A DNA stretch of 55,678 nucleotides from a virus (taxonomy: Duplodnaviria; Caudoviricetes). A program made the position numbers and the translations under genes. Below are positions 16,949 to 34,985 of the stretch, piece after piece (the stretch's first letter is position 1; the number at the start of each line of letters is the position of its first letter). The notes under the pieces are model-generated. The model ran no database searches, had not been told where the DNA came from, and saw only the letters and a list, made by a program, of their open reading frames with translations. The stretch is taken from IMG/VR virus record IMGVR_UViG_3300021085_000038, positions 1-55,678 of that record, one strand, 5' to 3'.

Positions 16949-16951
16949 ATA

Positions 16952-19194: not shown

Positions 19195-19252
19195 TTTCTA
19201 CTAATGGTTATTACTAGGGGCATAATAAAATGTCACATGGAAGGGCAGAGCA

Positions 19253-20470
19253 GTGGAAATACAATTAATAAAGACGTTACTGAGTAATGACACTTACTTA
19301 AACACAAAGCATAGATTACGCCAATCAATATTCTCAGATGAACTTGCACAGATTTACACTTTACTGGGTAAAGCTCATACTAAATACGAAACAGATATTA
19401 AGCCTGACGATCTGTATTCTCTTTGGTTAACAGAGAACCCTGTAGCAACAACCGCAGAGATAAATGACTTCAGGGATCTTGTTGATCAGTTAAAGTATGC
19501 AGATAAAATCACAGATACTATAGCTACAGATGTAATCGAAAGCTTATGGCGTAGAGAAATCGGTAGAGACATAGCCAACCTCGGTATCAATATGTCCGAA
19601 GGCGATACAACAGCGATGGGCAACCTTATATCCCTGCTTGAGCGTACCAAAGATTCGTACATGCCTGATGATTTCGGTGAGCCAACCACAGATGATATAT
19701 ACGAGCTTTTGGCTGAAACCTCTAATGATAATAGGTGGCAGTTCAACATAGAAACTCTTAGCCGCAATGTGTATGGTATCGGCCCAGCGGAATTTGGAAT
19801 TATCTTTGCACGACCCGAAACAGGTAAGTCTGCATTAGCTGTAAGCTTTTGTGCAGCACCTGGTGGTTTTGCTCAACAAGGCGCAAAGATATTATATCTT
19901 GGTAATGAAGAGAAAACCACACGCACTAAGCTAAGAGCTATCCAAGCTTGTTCTGGTATGACCCGTGAGCAAATAGCAGACAATCCTGATCTAGCCATGA
20001 GCAAATACCTATCGATCCAAGACAGAATAGTCATGAAGGATGTTCAGGAGTGGGATTTAGATACAATCAATGGATACTGTGAAAAGATCAAACCAGATGT
20101 AATAGTAATAGACCAGGCAGATAAAATTAATATCTCTGGCAATTACAATGCTTCTCATGAACGCATTAGAGAGTTGTATCGAAGCTTACGTGAGTTAGCT
20201 AAGAGACATGACTGTGCATTGTTAGGTATCAGCCAAGCAAGTGCTGACGCAGAAGGTCGTACTCGTATAGATTTCTCGATGCTTGAAGGATCAAAGACAG
20301 GTAAAGCAGCCGAAGCTGATCTTATCATTGGTGTAGGTAAGCATAGTGCTGCTGAAGACGATAATCCTGACCACACAAGGTTTATAAACATAAGCAAGAA
20401 TAAGCTAAGTGGTTATCACGGCTGCGTCATTTGCAATATCGAGCCTGAAGTAAGCAGGTACGTGGTATGA
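19253..20470 (+). CDS. Replicative DNA helicase (DnaB/SF4)
   Basis: ARPETGKS, IVIDQAD, ISQA, EADLIIG and KNKL motifs. Confidence 0.9.
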   Translation: MEIQLIKTLLSNDTYLNTKHRLRQSIFSDELAQIYTLLGKAHTKYETDIKPDDLYSLWLTENPVATTAEINDFRDLVDQLKYADKITDTIATDVIESLWRREIGRDIANLGINMSEGDTTAMGNLISLLERTKDSYMPDDFGEPTTDDIYELLAETSNDNRWQFNIETLSRNVYGIGPAEFGIIFARPETGKSALAVSFCAAPGGFAQQGAKILYLGNEEKTTRTKLRAIQACSGMTREQIADNPDLAMSKYLSIQDRIVMKDVQEWDLDTINGYCEKIKPDVIVIDQADKINISGNYNASHERIRELYRSLRELAKRHDCALLGISQASADAEGRTRIDFSMLEGSKTGKAAEADLIIGVGKHSAAEDDNPDHTRFINISKNKLSGYHGCVICNIEPEVSRYVV

Positions 20471-21264
20471 GCAACACTGGAAAAATAATATCCTGGTGGT
20501 CAGCGGGTGTAACATCTGCCGTAGCCTGTAAATTAGCAATTGATGAATTTGGTGACAGAGTAACTCCCATGTACTTTGCTATAGATAGCAGCCACCCAGA
20601 TAATGATAGGTTCAAAAAACAATGTGAAGAATGGTATGGTGTAGATATTGAAGTTCGAAGGTCAGAAAAATACTTAGATCAATATGATGTCATTGAAAAA
20701 ACAAAATATGTTAATGGGCCTTCTGGGGCAAGGTGTACGCTAGAATTAAAGAAAAAAGTAAGAATGCAGGTAGAGAAAGAGTGTTCTTATGATGGTCAGG
20801 TCTTTGGCTTTGAATACTCTAAGAAAGAAATAAACAGAGCATTACGCTTTAAAGAACAGTACCCCTCTGCTAAACCTCTTTTCCCTTTAATTGAAAAGAA
20901 AATTACAAAACCTGAAACTTTATATTTATTAGAACAGGCAGGTATACCTCGTCCTGAAATGTATAATTTAGGATATAAGAATAATAATTGTATTGGTTGT
21001 GTAAAAGGCGGCACGGGATATTGGAATAAAATACGCATAGATTTTCCAGATCATTTCAATCGGATGGCTGAATTAGAACGTAAGATTGGTAGAAGTTGTA
21101 TAAAAAGTGATTTCTTAGACGAATTAGATCCAAATAAAGGACACAAACAAAAGATAGTTATGCCTGATTGTGGTAACTTCTGTGACATTGAATTTTCAGA
21201 ACTAGAACACCCACAACTAGAACTTTTTACTAACTACCCTGAATTATTGAGGGGAGATAAGTAA
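20467..21264 (+). CDS. PAPS reductase-like / adenine nucleotide alpha-hydrolase protein
   Basis: PP-loop variant WSAGVTS; CTLELKK; NNCIGCVKG; C-terminal CGNFC. Confidence 0.7.
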   Translation: MSNTGKIISWWSAGVTSAVACKLAIDEFGDRVTPMYFAIDSSHPDNDRFKKQCEEWYGVDIEVRRSEKYLDQYDVIEKTKYVNGPSGARCTLELKKKVRMQVEKECSYDGQVFGFEYSKKEINRALRFKEQYPSAKPLFPLIEKKITKPETLYLLEQAGIPRPEMYNLGYKNNNCIGCVKGGTGYWNKIRIDFPDHFNRMAELERKIGRSCIKSDFLDELDPNKGHKQKIVMPDCGNFCDIEFSELEHPQLELFTNYPELLRGDK

Positions 21265-21788
21265 TGGGAAAACGATCAAACTTTGAAAGAAATCCAAGAG
21301 ATTATTATAGAACACCTCGTGAGGCTGTATTTCCTATATGGCCTTACCTGCAAGATCACCAGACCTTCTGTGAACCTTGTGCAGGAGATGGTGCATTAAT
21401 CAGATCACTACAAGAGATTGGACTTACCTGTTCAAGTGCGTGGGACATTGAGCCACAATCTAATGGTATTGATATCCAAGATGCCTGTGATCTTAAAGAA
21501 GAGCATTTATACGATGCTGATCTAATCATTACAAACCCACCGTGGGAGCGGAAGCTTCTGCATCCTATGATAGAACGGTTCTCAGACCTCAGACCTACTT
21601 GGCTGCTGTTTGATGCTGATTGGATACACACCAAGCAATCCATTCCATTCATGCCTCGCCTTAGAAAGATCGTAAGCGTTGGTCGTGTGAAATGGTTCGA
21701 CAAAACCGCAGGTAAAGATAACGCATGTTGGTATTTGTTTGACCGCCACGACGAAACTTATGCAACGAGATTCTATGGGAGAACGTAA
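21264..21788 (+). CDS. Amino (N6A/N4C) DNA methyltransferase
   Basis: YYRTP, EPCAGDG and ITNPPW motifs. Confidence 0.8.
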   Translation: MGKRSNFERNPRDYYRTPREAVFPIWPYLQDHQTFCEPCAGDGALIRSLQEIGLTCSSAWDIEPQSNGIDIQDACDLKEEHLYDADLIITNPPWERKLLHPMIERFSDLRPTWLLFDADWIHTKQSIPFMPRLRKIVSVGRVKWFDKTAGKDNACWYLFDRHDETYATRFYGRT

Positions 21789-23926
21789 TGAACATATTAG
21801 TATTGGATTTAGAAACAACCGTTCAGAAGATAGGTGGAAAGACGGACAACAGCCCGTACCATCCTGATAATAAATGTGTGAGTTCTCATACTTCTCGTGT
21901 CGAGCTAGAAGGCATGTCCAAGGTAAAAAACCTGGTCTTTCATCATAATGAAAAAGATGTTTCTGATAGCCCAGCGCCGCTACAAGACGAACTCAATTGG
22001 GCTACACTTTTGGTATGCCAGAACGCTAAGTTTGATGTTACCTGGTTATTAGAAATGGGCTTTGATATCCCTGACCAGGTCTATTGCACTATGATAGGTG
22101 AATACATCCTATCTAAAGGGCAGAAGCGTCCATTGTCGCTAAAGGCAATAGCTGAACGCAGAGATGTTACACGCAAGAAGTCTGATCTTGTAGATGATCT
22201 ATTTAAAAGCGGTACTGGCTTTGAAGCTATGCCACTTGCTACTGTTATAGAATATGCAGAAGCTGACGTTATATCCTGTGGTGAAATCTATCTGGATCAA
22301 CAGGACGAGTATGCAGCTAAAAGCAATAGATCATTAGCAGAGACAGTAAAGCTGATGAATGAAATGCTTTTATTTCTGGTTGAGATTGAAAGAAACGGCA
22401 TAAAGATAGACCTAGATGTACTTGGGGATATTAAGAACCAGTTCCAACAAGAACAACAGGATCTTAACAAACGCTTAGAAGAAATAGTCGAAGAGGTTAT
22501 GGGCGACACGCCTATTAACTTAGCGTCAGGTGCTGATATGACTAAGGTTGTATACAGTCGTGAAGTATTAGATCGCAATAACCATAAACAAGTATGGAAC
22601 ATAGGTGTTGGGCCGACAGGTAAACCATTATATCCACCACGAATGAACAAGAGTGAGTTTAGAAAAGCTGTTAGGGCAACGACTAAAATCATTCAACGTA
22701 CTGATGTTATATGCTGCGATGCTTGCGATGGGCGTGGTCGTATACAAAAGTTTAAGCAAATCACTCGTACAAAGATGGGTAAGAAGTATCGTGTTCAAGG
22801 TGATCCATACAAAAATCTATCTAAATGCCCTGCTTGTGTAGGTGTTGGGGCTTTCTATAACCCTAATGGTATAACAGCAGGTCTAAAGCTTAATCCTGAA
22901 TCACCGTCTGATGCTTCTATAAACGGATTTAAGACTGATAAAGTTACGATAGAAAGACTGATCTCTCAGGCTGAGAGTAAAGGCAACGAGATAGCTGTAG
23001 AGTTCTTAACAAAAAGTAGCAGATTAAACGCTGTTAATGTTTACCTCGATAGTTTTGTTAAAGGGTTTGAAACTTGGACACGATCAGATGGTATATTGCA
23101 CACACAGTTTACTCAATGTGTTACAGCCACGGGTAGGTTATCCAGTACAGCACCCAACATGCAGAATGCTCCGAAGCGTGGTTTTCCTGTACGCAAGGCT
23201 GTTGTAAGTCGATTTGAAAACGGAACAGTTGTTGAAGCAGATTTTAGTTCTATTGAATTTGTTTTGGCAGGAGAATTGAGTAGAGATACCCAGATTATAG
23301 CTGATGTTATCAACGGCAAAGACTTACATAAACAGACCGCATCAATAATACATCAATGTAGTGAAGATAAAGTGACTAAGGATCTTCGCCAGGGGTCTAA
23401 AAAATTCAGTTTTAGCCCCATTTATGGTGGACGTGGGGTAGGAGAAGCTCCTCACGTACAAAACTATTTTAGTGAGTTCTTTAATATCTATCAGGGTTTA
23501 GGTGCTTATCATGAAAGGCTTGCAAAAGGTGTTTTAAAGAATGGCATTGTGCAAACACCTTCAGGTCGTCAGTTCTTTTGGCCTAACGTAAAAAGGTTAA
23601 AAGGTAATCGTACTACTTTCTATACGCAGATAGTTAATTACCCTGTGCAGTCTAGTGCAGCGGATTTAATGCTCCTATCTTGTGTACGTGCTTTCCGTAG
23701 GTTCAAAGAACTAAAACTGAAATCTCTTTTAGTCCTGACTGTACATGATTCCATAGTCTGTGACGTTTATCCTGGTGAATTAGAGCAAGTAAAAGAAGCT
23801 CTTATCTGGGCAATGGTTGGTGTGACTGAAGAAGCTGCCCAGCGCTGGGACTACACTTTCGCCCTACCCTTAGAAATTGAGATTTCTGGTGGAAAAAACT
23901 GGCTGGAACAAAACGAATACACTTGA
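21788..23926 (+). CDS. polA: Family A DNA polymerase with DnaJ-type Zn-finger insertion
   Basis: Exo DLETT / NAKFD / YAEAD; CDACDGRG and CPACVGVG; ADFSSIE, RQGSKKFSF..IYG and VHDS. Confidence 0.95.
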   Translation: MNILVLDLETTVQKIGGKTDNSPYHPDNKCVSSHTSRVELEGMSKVKNLVFHHNEKDVSDSPAPLQDELNWATLLVCQNAKFDVTWLLEMGFDIPDQVYCTMIGEYILSKGQKRPLSLKAIAERRDVTRKKSDLVDDLFKSGTGFEAMPLATVIEYAEADVISCGEIYLDQQDEYAAKSNRSLAETVKLMNEMLLFLVEIERNGIKIDLDVLGDIKNQFQQEQQDLNKRLEEIVEEVMGDTPINLASGADMTKVVYSREVLDRNNHKQVWNIGVGPTGKPLYPPRMNKSEFRKAVRATTKIIQRTDVICCDACDGRGRIQKFKQITRTKMGKKYRVQGDPYKNLSKCPACVGVGAFYNPNGITAGLKLNPESPSDASINGFKTDKVTIERLISQAESKGNEIAVEFLTKSSRLNAVNVYLDSFVKGFETWTRSDGILHTQFTQCVTATGRLSSTAPNMQNAPKRGFPVRKAVVSRFENGTVVEADFSSIEFVLAGELSRDTQIIADVINGKDLHKQTASIIHQCSEDKVTKDLRQGSKKFSFSPIYGGRGVGEAPHVQNYFSEFFNIYQGLGAYHERLAKGVLKNGIVQTPSGRQFFWPNVKRLKGNRTTFYTQIVNYPVQSSAADLMLLSCVRAFRRFKELKLKSLLVLTVHDSIVCDVYPGELEQVKEALIWAMVGVTEEAAQRWDYTFALPLEIEISGGKNWLEQNEYT

Positions 23927-23981
23927 CTTGTGCCACCTAGTAATGCCATAATATAATACCACATAACAAAAAGGTTCTAAC

Positions 23982-24836
23982 ATGAACGAATTAACACAAA
24001 TCGACAGCAGCGAATTAGCAGAATTGGCTGAAATATTAGGAACAGAAGTACCAACAGGAAGCAATAAATCTGCTTTGGTCAGAGTTCCTGAACTAAAAAT
24101 TAATGCGAAGTCTCGTAATAAAATTACCAAGAAAGCCATACCTGAAGGTAGCTTTTACCTTACAGGCACAGACACTCCTGTTTACTCTGAAACAGTTAGC
24201 TTTCGACCATTGGCTTCACACGTCCAGTACTTCCATTGGGATGAAGTAGATGGCAAGCGTAAATTAGTTAACAAATCCCTTGCAGTTAAAAATCCATACA
24301 AAGATGAAGCCAGAGATTTACTTGGTGGAATTGCTTGCGGTATGCCTTCATGGGATGCACGTAAGGAAATGGAATACGATGAAGCCAAGAAGTGGCGGGC
24401 TATGCAACACCGTGTAATTCGTGGCGTTGTCTCCTACACAGGTAAAACTGAAGATGGTGTAGAAGTCACAGTAGAAAATGAACCATGCATCATGTTCCAC
24501 AAGAACAGCAATTATGGCGGCTTCTATAATGAATTTATCAAGAAGTTACCTCAAGGTTCACAGATTTATAATTACGCTGCTGAACTTACTTCATCATACA
24601 ATGAAAATGGCTCAGTAGTCTGGTATACTTTTGGGTACAAGCCTGACCTAAAAAATGAATTAGGTATGACTAAAGACGTACATGATACCATGTTAGTTTT
24701 TGCTGATGCCATCCGTGCTGAAAACAAGTATGTTGATGAACATTACTTTAAGTCAATCAAAGAAGGTTCAATTGATAGCGCAGCTATCGATGCACTCGGC
24801 GATTCATTAGACGCTGACTTTGAAGACGTAGCGTAA
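23982..24836 (+). CDS. Putative single-stranded DNA-binding protein
   Basis: Follows the polymerase; beta-rich with an acidic C-terminus. Confidence 0.55.
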   Translation: MNELTQIDSSELAELAEILGTEVPTGSNKSALVRVPELKINAKSRNKITKKAIPEGSFYLTGTDTPVYSETVSFRPLASHVQYFHWDEVDGKRKLVNKSLAVKNPYKDEARDLLGGIACGMPSWDARKEMEYDEAKKWRAMQHRVIRGVVSYTGKTEDGVEVTVENEPCIMFHKNSNYGGFYNEFIKKLPQGSQIYNYAAELTSSYNENGSVVWYTFGYKPDLKNELGMTKDVHDTMLVFADAIRAENKYVDEHYFKSIKEGSIDSAAIDALGDSLDADFEDVA

Positions 24837-25618
24837 TGGTAGATAGTAACGCTATAATAAAAGACATGAGCAATGACGTGTACCACTCTTCGGGTGGTAT
24901 ATCGTCATCCGCTGTGAAGACGGTATATAAAAAATCCTTAAAGCATTGGAAGGGTCAAAAGATTACCCAATCGGCTGCTTTTGCTATGGGTAATGCTGTT
25001 CATGCACACTTACTAGAGCCAGAACGTAATTTGGTTATCAAAGGCCCGAAAACAAAATCTAGTGCCGCCTTCAAAGACATGAAGGAAAAACTAACTGATG
25101 ATCAGGTTCTGCTAACTGAAGTTGAGTTTAATGTTGCTAATCGTATTGCCCAGGGAGCATTAGAAAACCCTGTATGCGAAGCGGCATTAAAGCATCCAGA
25201 TAGGATTAATGAGTGTAGTATATTCATAAAAGATCCAGTGTCCTCGTTACTTTTAAAGACCCGCCCAGATTTGTTGATTGAGTCTGAGCGCACTGTCTAT
25301 GATGTTAAGACTACACAGGATGCAAGCCCTCGTGGCTTTTCATTTGAATGCAACAAGTATGCGTACCTGATACAGGCGGCTGTGTATGTTTATATCTGTA
25401 ACTTAGTTGGATTAGACGTTAATAAGTTTGCCTTCATAGCCTGTGAAAAGTCTGCCCCATACGTCAGCCATATGCATTTTGTAAGCCCAGAAGCTTTGGA
25501 ATGGGCAACTACAGAGATGCACAAAACACTCGCTGTAATTGCTGAAGCTGAAGACAAGCAAGATTATGGCACTGGGTGGGGTAATGTATCCATACTTGAG
25601 AAACCGAAATGGCTATAA
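24836..25618 (+). CDS. PD-(D/E)XK exonuclease (RecE/DUF3799-like)
   Basis: YH..ISSS, GNAVH..LLEP, KTRPD, DVKTT and Y..QAAVY motifs. Confidence 0.85.
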   Translation: MVDSNAIIKDMSNDVYHSSGGISSSAVKTVYKKSLKHWKGQKITQSAAFAMGNAVHAHLLEPERNLVIKGPKTKSSAAFKDMKEKLTDDQVLLTEVEFNVANRIAQGALENPVCEAALKHPDRINECSIFIKDPVSSLLLKTRPDLLIESERTVYDVKTTQDASPRGFSFECNKYAYLIQAAVYVYICNLVGLDVNKFAFIACEKSAPYVSHMHFVSPEALEWATTEMHKTLAVIAEAEDKQDYGTGWGNVSILEKPKWL

Positions 25619-25965
25619 GCCCACAGTCTGCAAAGGCAAAGGGGCGGCGCTTTCAGCAATGGGTACGTGATCGTCTGTATCAAACATTTCCCACCTTAGA
25701 GGATGGCGATGTGAGATCAACAAGCAGCGGCGCTGGTGGGGAAGATATTTTACTATCGCCATTAGGACGTAGATTATTTCCCTACTCAGTTGAATGCAAA
25801 AACAACAAAGCCAACGCAATTTATAAAGTTATGGATCAAGCCGTCAGTAACTGTCCAAAAGGCATCACACCACTCGGTATGGTCAAGGCTGATAAACGTA
25901 AACCATTAGCGGTGGTAGATGCAGATCACTTCTTCGAGCTAGTAAAGAAAAATAATGAAAAATAA
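25609..25965 (+). CDS. Putative Holliday junction resolvase (PD-(D/E)XK)
   Basis: KAKGRRFQ..V, GGED and SVECK motifs. Confidence 0.7.
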   Translation: MAISPQSAKAKGRRFQQWVRDRLYQTFPTLEDGDVRSTSSGAGGEDILLSPLGRRLFPYSVECKNNKANAIYKVMDQAVSNCPKGITPLGMVKADKRKPLAVVDADHFFELVKKNNEK

Positions 25966-26263
25966 AAGTATACCAGTTGATACTGTAGCTATCTGTGTAT
26001 CGCTTTCTGAAGATGGCAGCACCCTAACACAAGTAATGGATAATTTTAGTAAGAGCTATCCTATCGTTGAAAAAGAATACTTACATCTACTGCTAAAGGG
26101 TTTGGAATTTATCATCCATACAAACCCTGACTTTGCAGCCACTGTAGGCAATCTCACAGAGCTATTAGAGAGCAAACAAGTAGAGTTCGAAGCCGACGAT
26201 GAACTCAAGGATGCAATCTCTGATGCAAAGGTAGTTCCTATCAATAAAAATAGGATGAACTGA
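25955..26263 (+). CDS. Hypothetical protein
   Basis: 102 aa, overlapping both neighbours in the operon. Confidence 0.7.
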   Translation: MKNKSIPVDTVAICVSLSEDGSTLTQVMDNFSKSYPIVEKEYLHLLLKGLEFIIHTNPDFAATVGNLTELLESKQVEFEADDELKDAISDAKVVPINKNRMN

Positions 26264-26559
26264 TGTCTAACTACTTCAAAAAAACTCCATCTGTAGATGA
26301 AGATATTATAGGCACAGTAGACCGTAAGAAGGTGGCTTCTGATGGCCTCTCAACGTCCTATTACAGCCTCCCTAGCCACGCTACGGAGCTTCGTCATCTT
26401 ATATCTCAAAAAAGCATGAGCAAGAGCCGTGGGGATATATTTAAGGCCTGTTACAGGTTGGGAGAAAAGGACGGAACAGACACTCTGTACGACCTGAATA
26501 AAATGAAATTTTTCATACAAGATTTAATCGAAATGCACGAGAGAGGCGAACACTTATGA
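26263..26559 (+). CDS. Hypothetical protein (possibly DUF3310-related)
   Basis: YY..GDIFKACYR..K..DLNK pattern. Confidence 0.55.
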   Translation: MSNYFKKTPSVDEDIIGTVDRKKVASDGLSTSYYSLPSHATELRHLISQKSMSKSRGDIFKACYRLGEKDGTDTLYDLNKMKFFIQDLIEMHERGEHL

Positions 26560-26882
26560 AGATGCAAGACTACCAGGAACAAGCAGGTAAAACTGCAATA
26601 TATAAAAAAGAAGATGCGGTTATATACCCAGTATTAGGACTTCTTTCAGAAGCAGGAGAAGTAGGCGGTAAAGTTAAGAAAATTATACGTGATCAAAATG
26701 GTAACTTTGAAGACGGAAACCGTACAGAAATTGTTGACGAGTTAGGTGACTGCCTTTGGTATATCCAATGCATCTGCACAGACCTTGATATTGGCCTGGA
26801 AGAAGTAGCCAAGCGAAATTTAGCAAAATTAAACAGCCGATTAGAACGTGGGGTTCTAGGCGGTTCGGGCGATAACAGATAA
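26556..26882 (+). CDS. mazG: MazG-like nucleotide pyrophosphohydrolase
   Basis: LGLLSEAGEV..KK..DELGDCLWY..NLAKL..R..GSGDNR. Confidence 0.9.
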   Translation: MKMQDYQEQAGKTAIYKKEDAVIYPVLGLLSEAGEVGGKVKKIIRDQNGNFEDGNRTEIVDELGDCLWYIQCICTDLDIGLEEVAKRNLAKLNSRLERGVLGGSGDNR

Positions 26883-26901
26883 TATAAAAAGGGAGCAGTT
26901 A

Positions 26902-28644
26902 ATGCTAAGAAATGAATACGGGCCTAAATTACCTATCAGTGAGCAGATACATAAAGAAAAATATCGTAGTGAAGGAGAAACCTTCCACGAGGCAATGACA
27001 AGAGTTGCTGAAGCACTAAAAGATGATGAAATACACTTTGAGCAGTTTAGAAGTATCCTAGATAATCAAAGATTCCTACCAGCAGGTAGAGTACAGTCAG
27101 CGATGGGCGCACCTCGCACTGTTACTCCATACAACTGTTTCGTATCAGGCACTATTGAGGACAGTATGGAAGGAATTATGGACGCAGCAAAAGAAGCTGC
27201 TAAGACCATGCAACTTGGTGGTGGTATAGGATATGACTTCTCTACTCTAAGGCCGCATGGGGCGCTTATTAAGAGCCTAGATAGCCGTTCTAGTGGGCCG
27301 TTAAGCTTCATGGCTATATTCGATAGCGTCTGCCATACAATCGCTTCAGCAGGTCACAGGAGAGGCGCACAAATGGGCGTTTTAAGGGTCGATCATCCTG
27401 ATATCGAGAAGTATATACGTGCTAAAAATAACTCCACTGATCTTACAGGTTTTAACATCTCAGTAGGTGTGACTGATGCCTTTATGGAAGCGGTTAAAAC
27501 AAACAGTCAATTTGATTTGGTCTTTGAAGACCGTGTTTATTCTACAGTGAATGCTCGTGCATTATGGGATGATATCTTACGATCTACATGGGATTGGGCA
27601 GAACCAGGTATCCTGTTTATTGATCGTATTAATAGAAAAAACAATCTACATTACTGTGAAAACATCGTAGCCACCAATCCCTGCGGAGAGCAGCCTTTAC
27701 CCCCTTATGGTGCATGTTTGTTGGGTTCTTTTAACCTAACTAAGTACGTTGTGCAGCACGATGGTAAGTATGTTTTCAACATGAATATGCTCAAGACAGA
27801 TATACCATATGTAGTCAGGGCTATGGACAATGTTGTTGATAGAGCAACATATCCGTTACCGCAGCAAGAGAAGCAAGCAAAAGACACTCGACGCATGGGT
27901 CTTGGGGTAACTGGGGTTGCTAATGCTATTGAAGCGTTAGGCTTTGATTACGGATCAGATGAATTTATTCGTGTGTTTGAAGACATTATGGGTACTATTC
28001 GTGATATCTGCTATGAAACATCTGTTGAACTGGCAAAAGAGAAAGGTGCATTCCCGTTATTTAAGAAAGAATACTTGGATAGTGAATTTGCACAAACCTT
28101 ACCTGCTAAGATTCGCAAGAGTATTGCAAAGCATGGCATTCGTAACTCACACCTATTGTCAGTAGCACCAACAGGTACAATCAGCCTGAGTGCAGACAAC
28201 GTATCATCTGGTATTGAGCCAGTGTTCTCACACTTCTATGATCGTACAATCCAGACGTTTGATGGGCCAACTATAGAGCGTGTAGATGACTATGGGTATC
28301 GTGAGTTTGGTATTAAAGGTAAAACTGCGGATGAACTATCTGTGTTTGACCATGTACGTGTGCTTAATGTTGCATCTCGTTATGTAGACAGTGCCTGTTC
28401 CAAAACATGTAATGTTGGAGATGATGTTACTTGGGAGCAATTCAAGAAAGTCTATATGGATGCCTATGAAGGTGGTTCATCAGGATGTACGACATTCCGT
28501 GCATCAGGAAAACGCTACGGTATCTTAAATGCATCTGCATCCGAAGACGTTGTAGAAGACAAACCAACAGAAAAAGACAACTTCATTGAAGAAGGTGGGG
28601 CTTGTTACTTTGACCCTGCTACTGGTCTTAGGAAGTGTGAATAA
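26902..28644 (+). CDS. nrdJ: Class II (B12-dependent) ribonucleotide reductase
   Basis: FLPAGR, NCFV, RRGAQM, TNPCGEQPL and APTGTIS; no beta-subunit gene present. Confidence 0.9.
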   Translation: MLRNEYGPKLPISEQIHKEKYRSEGETFHEAMTRVAEALKDDEIHFEQFRSILDNQRFLPAGRVQSAMGAPRTVTPYNCFVSGTIEDSMEGIMDAAKEAAKTMQLGGGIGYDFSTLRPHGALIKSLDSRSSGPLSFMAIFDSVCHTIASAGHRRGAQMGVLRVDHPDIEKYIRAKNNSTDLTGFNISVGVTDAFMEAVKTNSQFDLVFEDRVYSTVNARALWDDILRSTWDWAEPGILFIDRINRKNNLHYCENIVATNPCGEQPLPPYGACLLGSFNLTKYVVQHDGKYVFNMNMLKTDIPYVVRAMDNVVDRATYPLPQQEKQAKDTRRMGLGVTGVANAIEALGFDYGSDEFIRVFEDIMGTIRDICYETSVELAKEKGAFPLFKKEYLDSEFAQTLPAKIRKSIAKHGIRNSHLLSVAPTGTISLSADNVSSGIEPVFSHFYDRTIQTFDGPTIERVDDYGYREFGIKGKTADELSVFDHVRVLNVASRYVDSACSKTCNVGDDVTWEQFKKVYMDAYEGGSSGCTTFRASGKRYGILNASASEDVVEDKPTEKDNFIEEGGACYFDPATGLRKCE

Positions 28645-28646
28645 AT

Positions 28647-28826
28647 ATGAAAACCCCTTTTGATCAAGGTTACTTAGCCTTCTTTGAAGGGGATTTTGTA
28701 TGCAAATACAGGCCTCGATCTCATTACAATTTAGAATGGCATCGGGGCTTTAACAAAGCTTATTTTTATAACAGGAAAACATATGTACAAAGTATTCCAA
28801 TCGAAAGACTTCAACAAGTACGATGA
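28647..28826 (+). CDS. Small protein with Rmf/CrpP-like pattern (59 aa; not in the ORF track)
   Basis: FDQGYLAFFEG..CKY..EWHRGFNKAY. Confidence 0.55.
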   Translation: MKTPFDQGYLAFFEGDFVCKYRPRSHYNLEWHRGFNKAYFYNRKTYVQSIPIERLQQVR

Positions 28827-28950
28827 AGCAGCACGTTCCCAGGCTAAATCATTCTGGAGTAGCCAAGGGTATACATGCACTGATCATGAAAACGAGTATG
28901 ATGTAGATCTTGTTGTAGAAAAAGCTGTATTTATTCAAACAATGCAATAA
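28783..28950 (+). pseudogene. 55-aa ORF, possibly a truncated PD-(D/E)XK nuclease
   Basis: AGGA RBS; ..QGY..YDVDLVVEK then an abrupt end with no ExK motif. Confidence 0.35.
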
Positions 28951-29001
28951 AAAACGCCCTCAAGTGCTTGACCTGAAGGCGTAAATTATATAAAAAAATC
29001 T

Positions 29002-29067
29002 AGAAGCTGAACCTTGGTCGGTTCTGTTTTGTGTTTAAGCCCCTGGACTTCGGTTCGGGGGTTTTTT
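29002..29067 (+). ncRNA. Candidate trans-acting antisense sRNA, ending in the terminator between the two arms
   Basis: TTGACC-N17-TAAAAA upstream; 5' hairpin; single-stranded GUUUUGUGUUU; terminator. Complementary to three leaders at 14-15 kb. Confidence 0.65.
29037..29067 (+). terminator. Intrinsic terminator at the convergence of the two arms
   Basis: GCCCCTGGAC-TTCG-GTTCGGGGGT followed by a T run. Confidence 0.85.
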
Positions 29068-32000
29068 ATTGCATACTAAAAAGTTCTAACATGTCACGAT
29101 CCATAGTGCTGTTTTCTTCCTTACCGAAAGCATCTTCCTCTATAACACGTATCTCATATCTACTACCTGCTGCGGTAGCACTTACAGCTTCTAAGGCTAA
29201 TTTATTAGCAACTTTTCTAACAGTTGTACCTTGTCCTTTTGCTAATTCTCTTAGTAGTTCTTCGAACTTAGCAGGTTGTGAAACGATAACGGCTAATACA
29301 TTAGATGCTACTTCTTTCTGTAACTTTTCTGCTTCAGCTATAGGTACACTGGTAATTCTGCGTAGCATAGCGGCTGTGGGGTTCATGTAACCTGCTGTTA
29401 ATAGAATGGCTGTAGATACCGCATCTCGTATGTCTTCGCTACGTGCTGCATTTACTATAGTATCTGATCCTGCCTGAGAAACTTTCAGACGGCTAGGTAG
29501 AGATGTCTGATACATCATGTTAACAACATCAGTAACAGCTTCTGCCATTGCACTGTCATTACCATATACCACATTAATAGACTTAAATAAGTTACTTGTA
29601 TCATCTGCACTTAATTTACTAACTGCACCTATATTTATATTTTTACGTGCTTTTGTACCTGTCTTTAATGCAGTACCTGTAGCACCAAATATCTTTTCTC
29701 CTACCGTGTTCAACGCTACGGCTTGCAAAGCTTCTCTGGCTAACTTCTTTTGAGCATCATCAGGTAACAAATCAATCTTATTTACTAACTCTTGCATCCT
29801 GTTAGCAGAGTTTTTAGATGTCATAATTGATTGTATTACATCTTTAGCACTAGAAGTTACGGTACTTGCTCCCGTACCTGTAGCAGTGGTATCTATAAGT
29901 TGCTTTACCACACCTTCATGAGCTTGCTTAATACTAGCATCTAGCTCTTTAACTAATAAATCATTTGCGGCTTTAACATCCCCAAGACCTGAGTGTGCTG
30001 CGCTAACCTGATCAAAAGCCTTCTGCACACGATTTAATAGGTCTTGATCACCTAATCTCTGTAACTGCTCCCGTACAGGAGCGAATGCATTGAACAGTAC
30101 TTTCTCAGGATCTCCTCCTCCAGCACCAGATGCTAGTACATCTCTAAGACTGTTTGCTGCTTTTGCTACAAACATATCACGGAAAGACCCTTTTAATTCT
30201 TCGGGATTAACTATGTCTTTTGCTGCAAAGATAAGACCGTCCATTAACGTACCTGTTTCATCAGCAATTACTTCATTAACAAACTGACTTCCTGCAAGCA
30301 CTACATCGTCTTGGTTTCTTTGTCCTGGCCCAGGATAATTAGCATCCTCATAATCAAACTTACGCATTTCTTGAAATGTATCAGTTAAACGCCGCATAGG
30401 CTCAGACCTAGCAAACTGTGCTTTAGCTAAAATATACTTATCATCAGCGGCTTTGTAGGCATCGGCTATCGCTGGATTATCTACAGTTCTAAGGACATAT
30501 TCCATTTGTCCGTTTTTGTTATCTGTTATATGGTTTCTAAAAGAAATTAGCTTTTGTTGTACTGACGGCTGATCACTGTAAGCATCTATAACTCGTGCTA
30601 ATCTTGCTTTTAAGGTATACAAATCTTTAAAGTTTAAACCTTCTCCAATGTTTTCCATTACATCATCAACAGGACTATCAAATAGTTCATTGAGAGCGGC
30701 TTTAGTTCTGCCACCTGTATTATCTATTAGGTTAATGCTCTCTGTTACTTCTGCTAATTTAGAGTTGAATAAATCAACATCAATCGGTGCTTCTGGTAGA
30801 TTTTTATATGCCAGATCAACTTCATCCATTACTGCAACAAACTCATCATAAACATCAGTACTAACTAATTCAGTTAATTTCTGACGCATCTCGTTGTTGG
30901 TATTGGTGAATAAATTATCAGTGCCTGTTAAATCACCTACAATGTCTTGCAACACAGGGTTGTCTATAATTACATCTGATTGGGCATTTAGTATTTCATC
31001 AGTCTGTGAATTAAGCTCATTCTTCTGTAGGTTTAAGGCGGCTACTTCATCATCAGCACTTTTTACAACTTGAGATGCAACCGATTGAGCTGCCCCATCC
31101 ACATCTCCACCTATTTCTGCTGCTTCAGTTATAAACTCCCCTATTTGATTAGGTACACTATCAACAGTTGCAGCTACTCTTGAATCACTTAACTGGCTTC
31201 TAAACAAACCAATCATTGACGAAGACATACGAGCAGCTTCAGTATTTACTAACTCTTCGAATGCTTCCGCAGACATTGTATTTTTTAAACCTGCCCGTGT
31301 TTCTCTAATATATGCATCAGAAGACATCATGATAGCATTGGTAGTATCAGCGGTTATTTCACCTGTAACATCGCCCAGCGCAACTTTTATAATTCTATTA
31401 TCATTTAGCTTGTCTGCCAGGGATGAAATTCTAAGCTTTAATTGTGCGGGTTTTAAATTAACAATATCAGGATCAAGGTATTTAAATACTTCTAATATAG
31501 TACCATCTTGTACTGCCTTTTTAAGAGCATTCTTATTAAGTGCTTGTTTACCTGCTGATACTTTACCATAGGCAAAACCAAAGCCTCTTCCTAATAGAGA
31601 TAATGCACCATCCATTACACCATTAAGAGCTAAACCATCAATAAACATTGCTAAGTTTTTAGCATTTTGATCACTGATGTTTGGCAACAAATCATTAACA
31701 GCACTTGGTTTAACAAATAAACCCTCGTCACCCTCTCCTGACATAACCGTTTCAGATACAGCACCACCAAGGGCTACAGCAAGAGCAGTACCTTTTGTAC
31801 CTACATCTCCTGACTTACCTGCGGTAGATGCATACTTTATAAGACCCCCGCCATATTTTAATACTTTAGTTACTGGTAATGTAGGAGCAGCTATAGATAG
31901 GATAGTAGACGCAATCTCTTCGCCTCCTGATAAATCCATATCTGGTCTGGATTCAGCAAACTTGCTTTTACCCATTATAGCGCCTTCAGTAATCAGACCT

Positions 32001-32668
32001 CCAAGTTCTTGGTATATATTTCTACCTGCCTGATCTATCACTCTTCTAAATCCAGAACTATCAAATTCAGGGTTTGGAATTAAAACCTTTTCATAATTAT
32101 ATTTTGTTACATTACCTTCTGCATCTTTTACAGGGATGTAGCGGTCATAAATTTGATTAACACCTTCTGTATAAAAGGCATCACTTTCGTATAAATCCTT
32201 GACTGCCGTAGAATATTTTTCAATCTCTACATTATAAGTATCTCGTGCAACTTGAGATTTCTTTTTTGGTGCGCCTTCTGGATTTACAGCATCATAAAAC
32301 ATTGCGCCAATGCTATCAAACACACTTAGATTTGGCTTTTCTAGCTTATTACCATCTTCAAGAGTTACTTCACCATATAAGTTATCATAAGTGAAAGAAT
32401 CTCTCTTGTCCTTTTCAATAACAGGAGCTTTTACCTTAGATGTTTCATTGCTGTATTTTTCAGCTTCTTGCTGCCATTCATCTTCTGTACCTCCATATAG
32501 TTTTAAGGGTTCTGGTACAGAAAGATTATTTGCATTTAAGAAATCTAACTCTTCATCATTTAGTTCAGTTGAAGTAGTCGTATCCTCTTCCTCAAGAGGT
32601 ACAGGGATTGGTAAGTTGTTATCTTCTAAAAATTTCAACTCTTCTGGAGTTAATGTAGTATCAGCCAT
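29066..32668 (-). CDS. Large internal virion (ejection) protein
   Basis: ~1200-aa helical protein, last gene of the structural arm; AGGAG before MADTT. Confidence 0.7.
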   Translation of the reverse strand: MADTTLTPEELKFLEDNNLPIPVPLEEEDTTTSTELNDEELDFLNANNLSVPEPLKLYGGTEDEWQQEAEKYSNETSKVKAPVIEKDKRDSFTYDNLYGEVTLEDGNKLEKPNLSVFDSIGAMFYDAVNPEGAPKKKSQVARDTYNVEIEKYSTAVKDLYESDAFYTEGVNQIYDRYIPVKDAEGNVTKYNYEKVLIPNPEFDSSGFRRVIDQAGRNIYQELGGLITEGAIMGKSKFAESRPDMDLSGGEEIASTILSIAAPTLPVTKVLKYGGGLIKYASTAGKSGDVGTKGTALAVALGGAVSETVMSGEGDEGLFVKPSAVNDLLPNISDQNAKNLAMFIDGLALNGVMDGALSLLGRGFGFAYGKVSAGKQALNKNALKKAVQDGTILEVFKYLDPDIVNLKPAQLKLRISSLADKLNDNRIIKVALGDVTGEITADTTNAIMMSSDAYIRETRAGLKNTMSAEAFEELVNTEAARMSSSMIGLFRSQLSDSRVAATVDSVPNQIGEFITEAAEIGGDVDGAAQSVASQVVKSADDEVAALNLQKNELNSQTDEILNAQSDVIIDNPVLQDIVGDLTGTDNLFTNTNNEMRQKLTELVSTDVYDEFVAVMDEVDLAYKNLPEAPIDVDLFNSKLAEVTESINLIDNTGGRTKAALNELFDSPVDDVMENIGEGLNFKDLYTLKARLARVIDAYSDQPSVQQKLISFRNHITDNKNGQMEYVLRTVDNPAIADAYKAADDKYILAKAQFARSEPMRRLTDTFQEMRKFDYEDANYPGPGQRNQDDVVLAGSQFVNEVIADETGTLMDGLIFAAKDIVNPEELKGSFRDMFVAKAANSLRDVLASGAGGGDPEKVLFNAFAPVREQLQRLGDQDLLNRVQKAFDQVSAAHSGLGDVKAANDLLVKELDASIKQAHEGVVKQLIDTTATGTGASTVTSSAKDVIQSIMTSKNSANRMQELVNKIDLLPDDAQKKLAREALQAVALNTVGEKIFGATGTALKTGTKARKNINIGAVSKLSADDTSNLFKSINVVYGNDSAMAEAVTDVVNMMYQTSLPSRLKVSQAGSDTIVNAARSEDIRDAVSTAILLTAGYMNPTAAMLRRITSVPIAEAEKLQKEVASNVLAVIVSQPAKFEELLRELAKGQGTTVRKVANKLALEAVSATAAGSRYEIRVIEEDAFGKEENSTMDRDMLELFSMQ

Positions 32669-32672
32669 ATTA

Positions 32673-34985
32673 TTACTCCTGAGTTCCAAATTCTTTTCTA
32701 AGTACATCTACTGGGATGTCGTAGGTCTTAGATAATATATCCAAGTATTTATTGGCTTCGACTTCACCTTGGCTACCAAGAATCCCACTATATGCATCCA
32801 GATTTTGTGCATATGTAGGTGCGTTTTTATAGGTTGAAAGTGCTTGACCAATTGTAGGGGTAATTTCAGATGTATTATTTCCACCGTTACCTGGTGGTGG
32901 GTTTTGTACTGTAGCTTTTGTGGTTGCGTATTCTACAAGATGAGACAACCCACGACCTTCTAGATACTGCTCTACAGACTGTGTATATCCAGAGGATAAG
33001 TTCTTAGATGGATCTAGTTGATCTAGTATTTTAATCTGTGCGCTTGTTCCTACAAGGTCGTTAATTCTACCTTTAACTTTTTCAATACCCTCAAGTGACC
33101 TTGATCTTAGGTTATTACTAAATGTTGTGTAATCCGATCCAGGGCCAACAATCTGTAACGCATTCTTGAAGTCTGTATTAGATAGCCCAGCGCCACGTTG
33201 TTCAAGTGATACTGTTGCATATAAGTATGCATATTTAAGTAGCTCTGCTTCGAACTGAGAAGCTTTAGATGCAACGCCATCTTCACCAACAGACACACTA
33301 TCTATATAGCTGAATACTTCATCATCCGAGCTACCTTTTAAGTACATCTCATTGAGAGCTTTGTATTCATTATCGATGCGTTTAATAAGACGCTGTATAT
33401 CACCGCCGACTGTGGTCAATATTTCAGGAGATCCGCCTTTGCTAGGATCAATGAAGGATTCTAGCTTTTCAGCAGACTGCAACATAGTAGCCATCTCACG
33501 ACGACTTTCTGTTAATGGTACTAGAACCTTATCATTCATCTGAGACACTGTTTGCGCCTGTGCTTGTAGGGTTTTAATAGCTACACTACTTACATTGTTA
33601 TTTGTAGGTACAACTCTTTGCCTATCAATATCAAACAACTGTCCGTTTTTAGTAGGTGCAGTTGTTGCTATTATCGTGTCACCATTTTCGTCTTGATAAG
33701 TAGAGATTAAGAAACCTGCGCTTGTATCTAGTTCGATTTCAGCAGGGACATTTGCACGAGCCTTCTTCAATGACTCTAGCTGAGATTTCATTTGCCCTTT
33801 AGCAGTAGCAATAGCAACATCAAGTGTTGCACCTTTGATAGTATCCCAATCTTTTATATCAAAATCTTCCTTGCGACCTTTAAGTATAGCGTCAGCAGCT
33901 TTCTGCATTTCGGTAGTTTCGAATGGGTTATCTCTAGTACCTTGTAGTCCATTATCGTCTAATTTAGATAACTTTCTACCCATTTCCTTGTACTTTGAAT
34001 CAATAACTTGGTTAAATAGTTTTGCTTGAGCTTCTTCTAAACCTCCTGCCTCTATAGATCCTTCAAGTATTGATAAATCTAATTGATTTACTTCCACTAA
34101 TGTTAAAGGTTTCTTTAAAGATTTTACTAAAACCTCGCCAAGTTCAGTGACTTTCTTAGCTAATTCTTTTCCGTTTTGTAACTGTGTATTATTTTCAAAC
34201 CCAGCCGCTATTTGTATATAATTATCAGCAGTTATGTCTGCATAAGGAATTATCTGTGCTTCCTTATCAAGTATTGCTTGGTTTTCTGTAACCCAGTTAG
34301 TGATTTTTTGTTTATCTTCAGATGACATGGTAGCATCTTTTAATGCAGCAGCTCTACCTGCTTCTCCTAAATCTACTATTTCCTTGGTTGTTATAGCTAC
34401 GGATTGATATCTACTGACAGGTTCTTTATCTTCACCACCTACAGGAGCATTTTCTGTATCTGTTGTAGAAAACACAGTTTCCGTTTCTGTATCTAGAGTA
34501 CTTTCAATACTGTTGTCATCAAGTGCTGCGGCAGTGTCATCATTTTCAGGTACATTGTTTTTAGTAATATCCACTACAGGTGTTGTGTTAATAATAGGCG
34601 AACTACCATATGCAAATTCTGGAGAAAACTGTTTGTTGGGATCGCCGTAATAAGATATAGCGTCCTTACCCATTATTTGTACGTCTTTAAGAATATCTAA
34701 TCGTACACCAGGTACAACTTTTTTAGGATCAAGATTTTGTTCTCTTAGAATAATGCTAACTATTTTTGCATCTTTCTTATCCTGGGCATCTTTGGCCGCC
34801 GCTTTTTCTGCCGCATCAGCGGCTGCTTTAGCATCTGCCTTTTCTTTTTCGTAAGCTATTTCAGCTTCACGCTTATCTTTAGCAATCTTCGCAGGTACAT
34901 ATACACTGGCAAACCCTGTTAAGGCATCGCCGATAGCATTACTCTTAGGTGCATAATCTTGAGGGTTTGTATTACGCCATGCCAT
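32673..34985 (-). CDS. Internal virion (ejection) protein
   Basis: ~770-aa helical protein in the ejection cluster. Confidence 0.65.
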   Translation of the reverse strand: MAWRNTNPQDYAPKSNAIGDALTGFASVYVPAKIAKDKREAEIAYEKEKADAKAAADAAEKAAAKDAQDKKDAKIVSIILREQNLDPKKVVPGVRLDILKDVQIMGKDAISYYGDPNKQFSPEFAYGSSPIINTTPVVDITKNNVPENDDTAAALDDNSIESTLDTETETVFSTTDTENAPVGGEDKEPVSRYQSVAITTKEIVDLGEAGRAAALKDATMSSEDKQKITNWVTENQAILDKEAQIIPYADITADNYIQIAAGFENNTQLQNGKELAKKVTELGEVLVKSLKKPLTLVEVNQLDLSILEGSIEAGGLEEAQAKLFNQVIDSKYKEMGRKLSKLDDNGLQGTRDNPFETTEMQKAADAILKGRKEDFDIKDWDTIKGATLDVAIATAKGQMKSQLESLKKARANVPAEIELDTSAGFLISTYQDENGDTIIATTAPTKNGQLFDIDRQRVVPTNNNVSSVAIKTLQAQAQTVSQMNDKVLVPLTESRREMATMLQSAEKLESFIDPSKGGSPEILTTVGGDIQRLIKRIDNEYKALNEMYLKGSSDDEVFSYIDSVSVGEDGVASKASQFEAELLKYAYLYATVSLEQRGAGLSNTDFKNALQIVGPGSDYTTFSNNLRSRSLEGIEKVKGRINDLVGTSAQIKILDQLDPSKNLSSGYTQSVEQYLEGRGLSHLVEYATTKATVQNPPPGNGGNNTSEITPTIGQALSTYKNAPTYAQNLDAYSGILGSQGEVEANKYLDILSKTYDIPVDVLRKEFGTQE

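Follow-up and report, generated by a model that had tools for sequence, protein, structure and literature searches.

In the analyzed phage genome, two convergent operons are separated by 115 bp that very probably contain a small RNA gene, as judged from the signals conserved at this position among related phages. The product would be a transcript of approximately 65 nt, which probably acts in trans as an antisense RNA (sRNA) and blocks the translation of the early gene cluster headed by a GP88-family gene; this reading is based on the complementarity to the leaders of that cluster and on the way in which sRNA and leaders change together between lineages. The window, i.e., the whole stretch of DNA that was analyzed, is a complete-rated IMG/VR virus record with a length of 55,678 bp.

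Genome organization and phage context

The rightward genes are located at 15854-28950, and the leftward genes extend from approximately 15400 to 1 and then across the record ends from 55678 to 29066. The rightward block, the replication operon, encodes a tyrosine integrase, ThyX, a Toprim primase, a DnaB-like helicase, a family A DNA polymerase, a PDDEXK nuclease, MazG and a ribonucleotide reductase (RNR). The leftward block opens with a gene of the Pfam GP88 family (14520-15224) and small ORFs. Further along, DNA methyltransferase-like and terminase-like ORFs were found, which were judged from their translations only, and the last ORF of the block encodes a protein of 1213 aa (29066-32707, minus strand).

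The HMO-2011-type phages are among the most abundant marine phage groups. By its gene content, its size and its roseophage relatives, the window fits this type of marine podovirus. The RNR gene shows 71–72% identity on the DNA level to those of the roseophages CRP-9 and CRP-738. The typical traits are an integrase upstream of a replication module (family A polymerase, ThyX, MazG, RNR) and a genome of about 52–56 kb, with a gene layout that matches the window (PMC9038755, PMC8528129).

No tRNA or tmRNA gene was detected in the window by a tRNA scan. A 35-base fragment of a tRNA 3′ end lies beside the integrase region and matches tRNA genes without a mismatch, most of them from Rhodobacteraceae and Sphingomonadales; it is probably the attP site of an integrating phage. 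When one genome of each prokaryote species was searched for exact copies of the terminator pattern, no prophage copy was revealed, so that the host assignment follows solely from the tRNA-like attP fragment. Among the scanned proteins of the window phage, no recognizable protein repressor was found.

Anatomy of the convergent junction

The 115 bp between the convergent operons contain two interleaved terminators. The following features were located:

28949-28982, minus strand: intrinsic terminator of the leftward operon, hairpin 28954-28982 followed by a T run (the plus-strand A run 28949-28954); terminator scan and fold
28968-28973, plus strand: −35 box TTGACC, in the stem top and loop of the convergent terminator; invariant in the junction alignment
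28989-28996, plus strand: weak −10 region, either TAAAAA at 17 nt (28991-28996) or TATAAA at 15 nt (28989-28994)
29001-29067, plus strand: predicted sRNA of about 64–67 nt, 5′ end placed from the promoter
29009-29024, plus strand: 5′ hairpin GAACC-UUGGUC-GGUUC with the loop UUGGUC at 29014-29019; scan and fold
29025-29039, plus strand: linker with the seed UGUUUUGUGUUUAAG, the complement of the leader box CUUAAACACAAAACA
29040-29067, plus strand: intrinsic terminator of the sRNA, stem 29040-29048/29053-29061 with a UUCG loop and six U at 29062-29067; scan hairpin 29037-29064

The hairpin at 28954-28982 contains two G.U pairs on the minus strand, which would be C.A on the plus strand, and the hairpin at 29040-29061 does not form in the fold of the minus strand. 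Since each terminator hairpin has its G.U pairs on its own strand, leftward transcripts should end at about 28950 and rightward transcripts at about 29067, and both would cross the motif between them. In this model, the 3′ end of the sRNA is defined by an intrinsic terminator on its own strand. The same plus-strand terminator closes the rightward replication operon and has a 2-nt overlap with the stop codon of the 1213-aa ORF.

The predicted sRNA folds with −28.4 kcal/mol (z = −4.06), and the covariance model R1, for which the window itself was a training sequence, matches 29001-29066 with 68.7 bits. In the fold of the minus strand a small hairpin is formed as well, with GACCAA in its loop. 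The −10 region of the window agrees with TATAAT in only 4/6 positions, and a consensus promoter scan called no promoter at the window junction; the closest relative (L006) carries TATAAA at a spacing of 17 nt from the −35 box. The parts of the unit which the initial annotation had listed could thus be recovered as far as the hairpin, the linker, the terminator and the −35 box are concerned, and its candidate promoter is weakened in the window by the −10 region. The seed, described there as exposed, is located in a linker that is single-stranded in the shape shared with related RNAs, but in the MFE fold of the window part of it is paired as a weak extension of the 5′ hairpin.

The motif is not followed by a conserved small ORF at the junction (an ATG frame of 4 codons in the roseophage CRP-235 and none in the window). 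An Rfam cmscan of 28500-29500 against all 4227 families with E up to 10 gave 12 weak matches, none of which attained the gathering score. Metatranscriptome contigs from four RNA-library runs, compared with 27500-30500, cover parts of 28719-29016 and 29058-29265; one assembled, unstranded piece stops at 29016 and another one begins at 29058. These contigs are fragmentary, unstranded and without defined ends, and may be derived from DNA.

Complementarity to three distant leaders

The plus-strand sequence at 29014-29039 reads TTGGTCGGTTCTGTTTTGTGTTTAAG, exactly as quoted in the initial annotation, where it had been proposed to pair with the leaders of three minus-strand genes. All three pairings were found as described:

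15225-15252, minus strand: leader 1, in front of the first gene of the leftward operon (14520-15224, GP88 family); 13 + 11 pairs with a 4-nt bulge, reaching the ATG
14357-14376, minus strand: leader 2, CTTAAACACAAAACGGAGTC, upstream of the 68-aa ORF 14144-14350; 20 contiguous pairs including 3 G.U, with the ATG 7 nt further on
14039-14062, minus strand: leader 3, TTAAACACAAAAGGAACTGACCAA, upstream of the 70-aa ORF 13826-14038; one bulge, reaching the ATG

The seed is complementary to distant mRNAs at their ribosome-binding sites, with 13.8–15 kb between the sRNA locus and the targets. The loop of the 5′ hairpin (29014-29019) is complementary to GACCAA, which adjoins the AUG on its 5′ side in two leaders, those of the genes at 14038 and 15224, and in leader 2 the Shine-Dalgarno sequence GGAG lies inside the duplex. 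The consensus of the leaders is TTAAACACAAAA-GGAACTGACCAA, with lineage variants.

In a genome-wide scan of both strands with G.U pairs allowed, the three leaders were the top non-self matches with scores of 48, 43 and 41, compared to 37 for the next match. Among 400 dinucleotide shuffles of the RNA, a best score of at least 48 was reached in 8, a second score of at least 43 in 1 and a third score of at least 41 in 1. Using ViennaRNA duplexfold over 546 ATG leaders, those of the genes at 15224, 14038 and 14350 were found at ranks 1, 2 and 5. Cofolding, which charges for the opening of the sRNA's own hairpin, resulted in net values of −15.8, −14.4 and −19.3 kcal/mol for the leaders at 15224, 14350 and 14038, and of −0.1 to −4.3 kcal/mol for 8 other leaders of the same operon.

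The motif is present in four copies, all of them on the minus strand. Three abut start codons, and the fourth, at 29014-29039, is not followed by a start codon. As all copies are direct repeats on one DNA strand, the complementarity of the opposite strand follows from the repetition alone and proves nothing by itself. Two of the leaders share 42 nt including the first codons (repeat family D20), which indicates that the DNA itself was duplicated. The leader of the gene at 14350 is preceded by a GC hairpin, as is the junction copy.

The first target protein matches Pfam GP88 with an E-value of 2e-32; its comparison with PDB sequences gave chance-level matches only (E 0.097 or worse). No function could be assigned to the target proteins from NCBIfam or PHROGs, and the two small proteins belong to no family. 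The 68-aa ORF (14144-14350) encodes a hydrophobic N-terminus.

Conservation of the unit in related phages

Using the neighboring 1213-aa protein, 22 related loci with 28–94% identity were identified. The order of the junction was kept in all of the loci examined, i.e., in 11 closer (44–94% identity) and 8 more distant ones. Read in leader sense, it consists of a terminator hairpin, the leader-like motif, the GACCAA-loop hairpin, a TATA-like box, a hairpin containing GGTCAA and a T run.

When IMG/VR was queried with nothing but the right-hand terminator, 32 matches at 26 loci were obtained, and TTGACC was found 70–79 nt upstream in 32/32. For the −10 region, 37 unique units selected by a loose regular expression were analyzed at a spacing of 16–18 nt, six low scorers among them not being units by eye. 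The hexamer was TATAAT in 14, agreed in 5/6 positions in 7 and in 4/6 positions in 5 units, including the window; at least 5/6 positions were thus matched in 21/37 units vs. approximately 4% of shuffles. The −35 and −10 boxes conserved among the relatives argue in silico for a promoter, of which the window itself has a 4/6 variant.

In an alignment of 12 diverse RNAs, 94.4% of the cells were paired, and the covariation score was reached by 0 of 500 shuffles; one misaligned row (G006) was counted as broken structure. In the 5′ stem, 3/6 pairs are changed on both sides, with 90% of the cells paired, and further variants of this stem occur in G006, in the roseophage CRP-212 and in a second RNA type described below. 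The terminator is paired in 97% of the cells. Its U.G pairs, which form on the plus strand only, were identified at columns 52-67 in 9/12 rows and at columns 57-62 in 10/12 rows. All of the six RNAs that were folded show the succession of hairpin, linker and terminator. The independent small transcription unit on the plus strand, as put forward by the initial annotation, thus has counterparts in the relatives, with promoter, 5′ hairpin, seed and terminator conserved.

The unit is also carried at the convergent junction by the cultured roseophages CRP-235 (MZ892989, unit at 14219-14289) and CRP-212 (MZ892988, unit at 13841-13902), where it was detected only by the covariance model. Both phages are classed as HMO-2011-type in PMC9038755. 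In CRP-235, it fills an unannotated gap of 125 nt between gp20 and gp21, and units have so far been found only in unannotated gaps of approximately 110–125 nt. The covariance model R1 gave no match in the other five of the seven cultured relatives searched (CRP-9, -207, -345, -603 and -738), so the unit appears to be dispensable for this type of phage; the junction of CRP-9 has a length of only 34 nt.

A blastn search of the window unit and of the G003b unit against GenBank phages gave no real match, the matches to Vibrio phages being limited to the terminator (E 0.009). With the CRP-235 unit, only the phage itself and Gordonia phage matches at E 0.1 or worse were obtained. In a tblastn search of phages, the last 444 aa (C-terminal part) of the 1213-aa protein had no match.

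Co-variation of seeds and leaders

Besides the window, nine virus records were assembled whole, and G002, G004, CRP-235 and CRP-212 were included later. A GP88 homologue was identified in 7/9 records (G001, G003, G006, G008, G011, G012 and G015) and none was found in G013 or G019. The complementarity, whose loss in relatives had been set beforehand as the finding that would speak against the RNA, is kept in every searched record that holds both loci.

Outside the hairpin, the RNA is lineage-specific. In leader sense, the seed reads CTTAAACACAAAACA in the window, AATCTAAAACGAA in G001/G012, CAATTAAAACCGAAAC in G003/G015/G011, CTTACTAGCTAAAC in G006/G008, AACCAACGAACA in G002, CTAAACTTGAAAGGG in CRP-235 and ATTCTAACTAGA in CRP-212. 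Each lineage seed recurs just upstream of several early-cluster starts in its own genome. The linker seeds were compared with all ATG leaders of five genomes in a matrix of exact matches. Matches in the home genome were 10–16 nt long and found in 3–6 leaders, compared to at most 9–11 nt in at most 1 leader of the foreign genomes. The exception is the G003b seed, of which 9 nt are common to 3 leaders of the related window genome. For the window seed, 14 nt match exactly in 3 home leaders vs. at most 9 nt in at most 1 leader of the four other genomes. Linker seeds that were read backwards as a control showed no home-genome pattern. The type-a seed scores zero at home because its target lies inside the 250 nt excluded around the sRNA genes.

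The leaders of the more distant G002 lineage, in which the neighboring protein is 33% identical, are matched by their own seed as well. Its longest match was 11 nt in G003 vs. 10 nt at home, and the matched leaders numbered 4 at home vs. 1 in G003. In 10/10 sRNA-genome pairs, the leader with the top duplex energy belongs to the GP88 cluster or to a neighboring small gene. The leaders of CRP-212 were found at ranks 2, 3, 4 and 7 of 653 and those of CRP-235 at ranks 2 and 4 of 603, rank 1 being an unrelated ATG in both phages. No matching leader was found in G004, which is 45% complete.

A cross-genome matrix of duplex energies was also considered as evidence for specificity and was discarded in favor of the exact-match matrix, as it proved too noisy. 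For two types, G001/G012 and G006/G008, it lacks a diagonal, and their alignment scores (35–37) equal the genome background.

The initial annotation had further stated that every substitution between sRNA and leaders is compatible with G.U pairing. This is correct for the window, with 4 transitions in symmetric alignments and 2 in the extension of the 14350 leader, and did not extend to the relatives, where 30 unique sRNA-leader pairs contained 18 G.U-compatible and 29 incompatible transitions besides 39 transversions. A G.U bias was therefore rejected as a general proof of RNA pairing. These changes are mostly located in the middle, i.e., in the Shine-Dalgarno sequence (AAGGA) of the leader and the hairpin stem of the RNA. 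By these comparisons, it is the linker block in which seed and targets co-vary; the GACCAA block hardly changes at all, and no co-variation is seen in the middle part.

Proposed mechanism and alternative explanations

From the conserved signals, a host polymerase with a sigma-70-type factor would start at the promoter formed by TTGACC and the TATAAT-like box and stop after approximately 65 nt. The RNA is predicted to fold into a 5′ hairpin that exposes UUGGUC in its loop, followed by a linker, which is U-rich and single-stranded, and by a terminator hairpin with a U tail; this shape is supported by covariation. Presumably, the start of the loop (UUGG) corresponds to the YUNR motif of antisense recognition loops, and we take the U-rich linker and the U tail to resemble an Hfq module. 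The loop would pair with GACCAA 5′ of the AUG and the linker with the conserved box 15–30 nt upstream, after which the duplex could extend over the Shine-Dalgarno region and comprise 20–28 bp in the window. In known sRNAs, a duplex over the Shine-Dalgarno sequence up to the AUG blocks initiation. Here, the 30S site of the first leftward genes (the GP88-family gene, the gene of the small hydrophobic protein and that of the 70-aa protein) would be covered, which may result in a translation block and in mRNA decay.

As early and late genes are located in one co-directional unit, an RNA directed at the leaders could stop the synthesis of the early proteins while late transcription continues. Any transcript that reaches the end of the leftward operon would include a perfect complement to the sRNA and run across the sRNA promoter, and could in this way titrate the sRNA or shut it off. 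Between the lineages, the chassis stays the same and the seed differs, each seed fitting the leaders of its own lineage.

Some weight has to be given to an explanation that we regard as unlikely, in which the function resides in the minus strand. Within the 3′ UTR of the late leftward transcript, the motif would then be a decoy that imitates the early leaders and titrates their binder (S1, the 30S subunit or a protein that represses or activates translation), or the small RNA would mainly act in cis on that 3′ end by RNase III processing or stabilization, the likeness to the leaders being secondary. A minus-strand transcript must indeed traverse the motif before it reaches the terminator at 28954-28982, the junction copy has the sense of the leaders, the GACCAA-loop hairpin forms on that strand, and the central Shine-Dalgarno part has not been kept complementary. 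This explanation does not account, however, for the opposite strand, where TTGACC is invariant and has a TATAAT-like box at a spacing of 17 nt, nor for the U.G pairs that restrict the 29040-29061 hairpin to the plus strand, and no candidate for a leader-binding protein was identified among the scanned proteins.

It is quite unlikely that the motif is a leader-type DNA repeat without a role as RNA, for example the relic of the start of a lost gene or a recombination boundary of a gene cassette, similar to other repeated sequences at gene starts, placed between terminators by chance. The four direct copies on one strand, the 42 nt including first codons common to two leaders and the GC hairpin in front of both the 14350 leader and the junction copy would fit this origin. 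The junction copy was nevertheless found in at least 7 seed lineages, never with a conserved start codon or ORF, always in a hairpin and always flanked by a promoter and a terminator of the opposite strand, and a relic would be expected to decay instead of following the leaders of its own genome.

The RNA may also be real and pair with the leaders, and yet activate or stabilize the early messages or serve the immunity of a lysogen instead of a lytic shut-off, which we consider improbable. The integrase, the probable tRNA attP and the lack of a recognizable repressor among the scanned proteins are in line with immunity, a sigma-70-type promoter as used by the host could be active in lysogens, and the c4 RNA of P1/P7 is a precedent (PMC12197685); against these points, the Shine-Dalgarno sequence lies within the duplex, which extends to the base adjoining the AUG. 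That the junction is a convergent terminator pair only, with complementarity by chance, is hardly credible, since a single best match of this quality did occur in 8/400 shuffles but three matches are located at three start codons (a third one this good in 1/400 shuffles), the promoter is conserved and the lineage-specific seeds fit their own leaders. The translational block of the early cluster by a trans-acting antisense RNA is the probable function.

Comparison with known regulatory RNAs

To our knowledge, antisense RNAs by which a phage controls genes of its own have been described in a few enterobacterial models. Among them, c4 of P1/P7 is processed from the operon that it controls and has one target region. 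Unlike c4, the junction sRNA would have its own promoter at the far genome end and 3–6 targets with a repeated leader box. The two RNAs are alike in the predicted trans action, the target at the ribosome-binding site, the use of loops and the lineage specificity: according to PMC12197685, c4 is a phage RNA of approximately 77 nt with complementary stretches in loops that acts in trans near the ribosome-binding site of an mRNA, and RNA and target differ between related phages, which sets the specificity. No c4 model was among the Rfam matches at E up to 10 in 28500-29500; the junction sRNA is alike in action, shows no homology to c4 in sequence or structure, and was not placed in the c4, sar or OOP families.

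The sar RNA of P22 (68/69 nt) and the OOP RNA of lambda (77 nt) have their own promoters, pair with phage mRNA and lower its expression; sar blocks the translation initiation of ant, and OOP is located at a convergent gene end. Both are cis-encoded and overlap a single, fully complementary target (PMC12197685). In contrast, the targets of the junction sRNA are 14–15 kb away and pair imperfectly in two blocks, and the convergent operon is the sole one with full complementarity, at its 3′ end. By this comparison, the junction sRNA seems less like sar and OOP than like c4. The CI RNA of the satellite phage P4 is an immunity factor that pairs with repeats in the early transcript and co-varies with its targets in relatives; it causes premature transcription termination and is cut from the leader that it controls, whereas the junction sRNA would pair at ribosome-binding sites and be transcribed from its own promoter.

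Trans-acting sRNAs of the Hfq type have their own promoter, a 5′ structure, a single-stranded seed, a U-rich stretch, a U-tailed Rho-independent terminator and several targets at ribosome-binding sites. The junction sRNA differs from these in being encoded by a phage and aimed at the genes of the same phage, and its targets share a duplicated leader, whereas Hfq-type sRNAs use independent short seed matches.

The leaders themselves resemble the start-associated sites (SAS) of cluster K mycobacteriophages in kind. In PMC3203893, SAS is a repeated asymmetric motif with the consensus GGGATAGGAGCCC and a Shine-Dalgarno core, which occurs in one orientation a few bases upstream of start codons and only at non-structural genes. 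There, 93 sites across genomes are described, and it was left open in 2011 whether the binder is an RNA or a protein (PMC3203893). In the phages analyzed here, 3 such leaders were found in the window and 4–6 in G003/G011/G015, ending at or near the ATG; they differ from SAS in their unrelated sequence, in the number of 3–6 sites per genome and in having a candidate partner RNA. We know of no partner RNA described for SAS.

The main texts on these roseophages and HMO-2011-type phages, including PMC9038755, contain no mention of a small RNA, antisense, a promoter or a terminator, and the main text of PMC9038755 does not mention intergenic or noncoding elements. In the literature searched, nothing relevant was found on small RNAs of roseophages, nor on a phage sRNA in connection with early genes and leaders. 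The junction RNA would represent a new family whose kind of regulation is known and whose design is unusual, in that it serves several leaders and can be re-aimed. The findings point to an RNA switch acting on the translation of early genes, of which we know no description in this abundant phage group.

If this is true, one of the most abundant groups of marine phages contains a new RNA family. A repeated, start-associated leader motif would be tied to a candidate partner RNA, a question open for SAS since 2011 (PMC3203893). The results also suggest a post-transcriptional route for the shut-off of early proteins where early and late genes share a co-directional unit, and the lineage-specific seeds predict an RNA-based specificity between co-occurring phages. 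As two carriers of the unit, CRP-235 and CRP-212, are in culture, the idea is open to bench work.

A second predicted RNA on the shared chassis

A second RNA with the same chassis and an unrelated seed was found in G003 (8348-8444), in G011 (29071-29166) and in others, so that the chassis has been re-aimed at least once. A wider proposal is offered tentatively, and we hold it to be possible rather than probable: HMO-2011-type phages would possess a programmable RNA regulator with a fixed chassis, made up of a terminator-nested promoter, a UUGGUC-loop hairpin and a terminator, and with a seed that co-evolves with the start-associated boxes in the leaders of early genes. In combination with the second sRNA of the same chassis upstream of the early operon, which has an anti-Shine-Dalgarno-like loop, it might form a temporal or immunity switch and set the heteroimmunity of co-occurring phages, as c4 does in P1/P7, in a group that has no recognizable protein repressor. 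It would then be the first partner RNA for SAS-like leaders.

The seed of the second RNA matches the leader of a 58-aa gene located between the two RNA genes. In G003, the duplex of the second RNA with the leader of the 58-aa gene amounts to −32.5 kcal/mol, compared to −24.5 kcal/mol for the next leader, and the gap was found to be 8–9 kcal/mol overall.

A second small-RNA-like unit upstream of GP88

15694-15790 (−): second small-RNA-like unit, consisting of a promoter-like site, a hairpin and a terminator

The promoter-like site of this unit is TTGCTT-16-TATACT. It is followed by a GTAGTC/GGCTAC hairpin with the anti-Shine-Dalgarno-like loop UUUCUCCCUC, and by a terminator that is paralogous to the sRNA terminator at 29040-29061. 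The covariance model of the sRNA (R1) scored the unit with 22.2 bits (E 0.033) and also matched the equivalent position in five relatives (L030, L032, L035, L036 and L055). Co-variation in the hairpin stem was found across the related loci L028 to L035, as judged by eye. The top predicted partner, ranked 1 of 541 with −33.6 kcal/mol, was the leader of a large ORF starting at 53241 (−); GGGAGAAGA is present in this leader. The unit lies on the same strand as the GP88 gene, about 470-560 nt upstream of it.

Candidate operators and regulator near the early region

about 15457-15470 and 15670-15683 (−): two copies of the conserved box TACTCGCACGTCAA
about 15300-15318, 15785-15800 and 15830-15845 (−): motif TTAwTArGTGGCA, intergenic
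17767-17792 and 11717-11742: motif TTAwTArGTGGCA, intergenic

The two TACTCGCACGTCAA boxes flank a small ORF of 59 aa on the + strand (15497-15676), for which no match was obtained in Pfam or NCBIfam. This layout of paired boxes around a small ORF was also found in L028 to L035. The boxes and the ORF are candidates for an operator pair and its regulator.

The motif TTAwTArGTGGCA, which is recurrent in the intergenic regions of the window, is partly a palindrome (CCACTTTATTAAGTGG). One copy is located within the spacer of the promoter of the second small-RNA-like unit and another one opposite the integrase promoter-like site. The motif may be an operator or a phage promoter element.

Target leaders and origin of the sRNA gene

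14379-14399 (−): GC hairpin (AAGGGC...GCCCTT), immediately 5′ of the 14350 leader box

The order of hairpin and box in the 14350 leader resembles that of the sRNA gene, where the terminator hairpin precedes the box, and the same hairpin-before-box arrangement was found in the leaders of the cultured roseophage CRP-235. There are thus hints that the sRNA gene was derived from a duplicated hairpin-plus-leader cassette.

L028, whose GP88 protein is the most similar one (96% identity), has a rebuilt leader (L028 about 3960-4000). The box ACACAAAACAGGAACC is retained, but it is separated from the ATG by a different, new Shine-Dalgarno sequence and by an additional 25 nt. The sRNA locus of L028 lies outside this 11.4-kb contig.

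Flanks of the sRNA unit and tandem sRNA genes

28942-28954 and 29061-29073: perfect 13-nt inverted repeat, TGCAATAAAAAAC / GTTTTTTATTGCA, bracketing the sRNA unit
L012 5364-5989, G003 8348-8973 and G011 28534-29166: tandem sRNA genes in some relatives

Since the inverted repeat brackets the unit, both convergent ORFs end in ...MQ-stop. The repeat also occurs in the closest relative (L006, 94%) and is absent from more distant relatives. In one contig of a related strain from an RNA library (run X18), an extra A follows position 29025, the hairpin/linker junction of the sRNA.

In the relatives with two sRNA genes in tandem, a 58-aa gene lies in between, and the seed of the first RNA matches the leader of this gene. 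The junction thus carries an inserted, self-contained module of an RNA and a small gene.

Probable attP and similar ends of the record

17659-17714 (−): tRNA 3′ half (T arm, acceptor stem, CCA)
1-1215 and 54338-55552: similar end segments of the record

The tRNA 3′ half is located near the integrase and is probably the attP core; a tRNA scan of the window identified no full tRNA gene. Exact copies of a 35-mer from this half are present in tRNA genes, which belong mostly to Rhodobacteraceae and Sphingomonadales among the at least 120 matches listed.

In the end segments, the first 300 nt are 92% identical and additional blocks reach 71-100%, as drawn from the repeat families D1, D3, D8-D12 and D18. 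They are either two paralogous genes in tandem across the ends of the record or variants from two strains that were joined as a terminal overlap during assembly. In the latter case, the true genome would be about 1.3 kb shorter.
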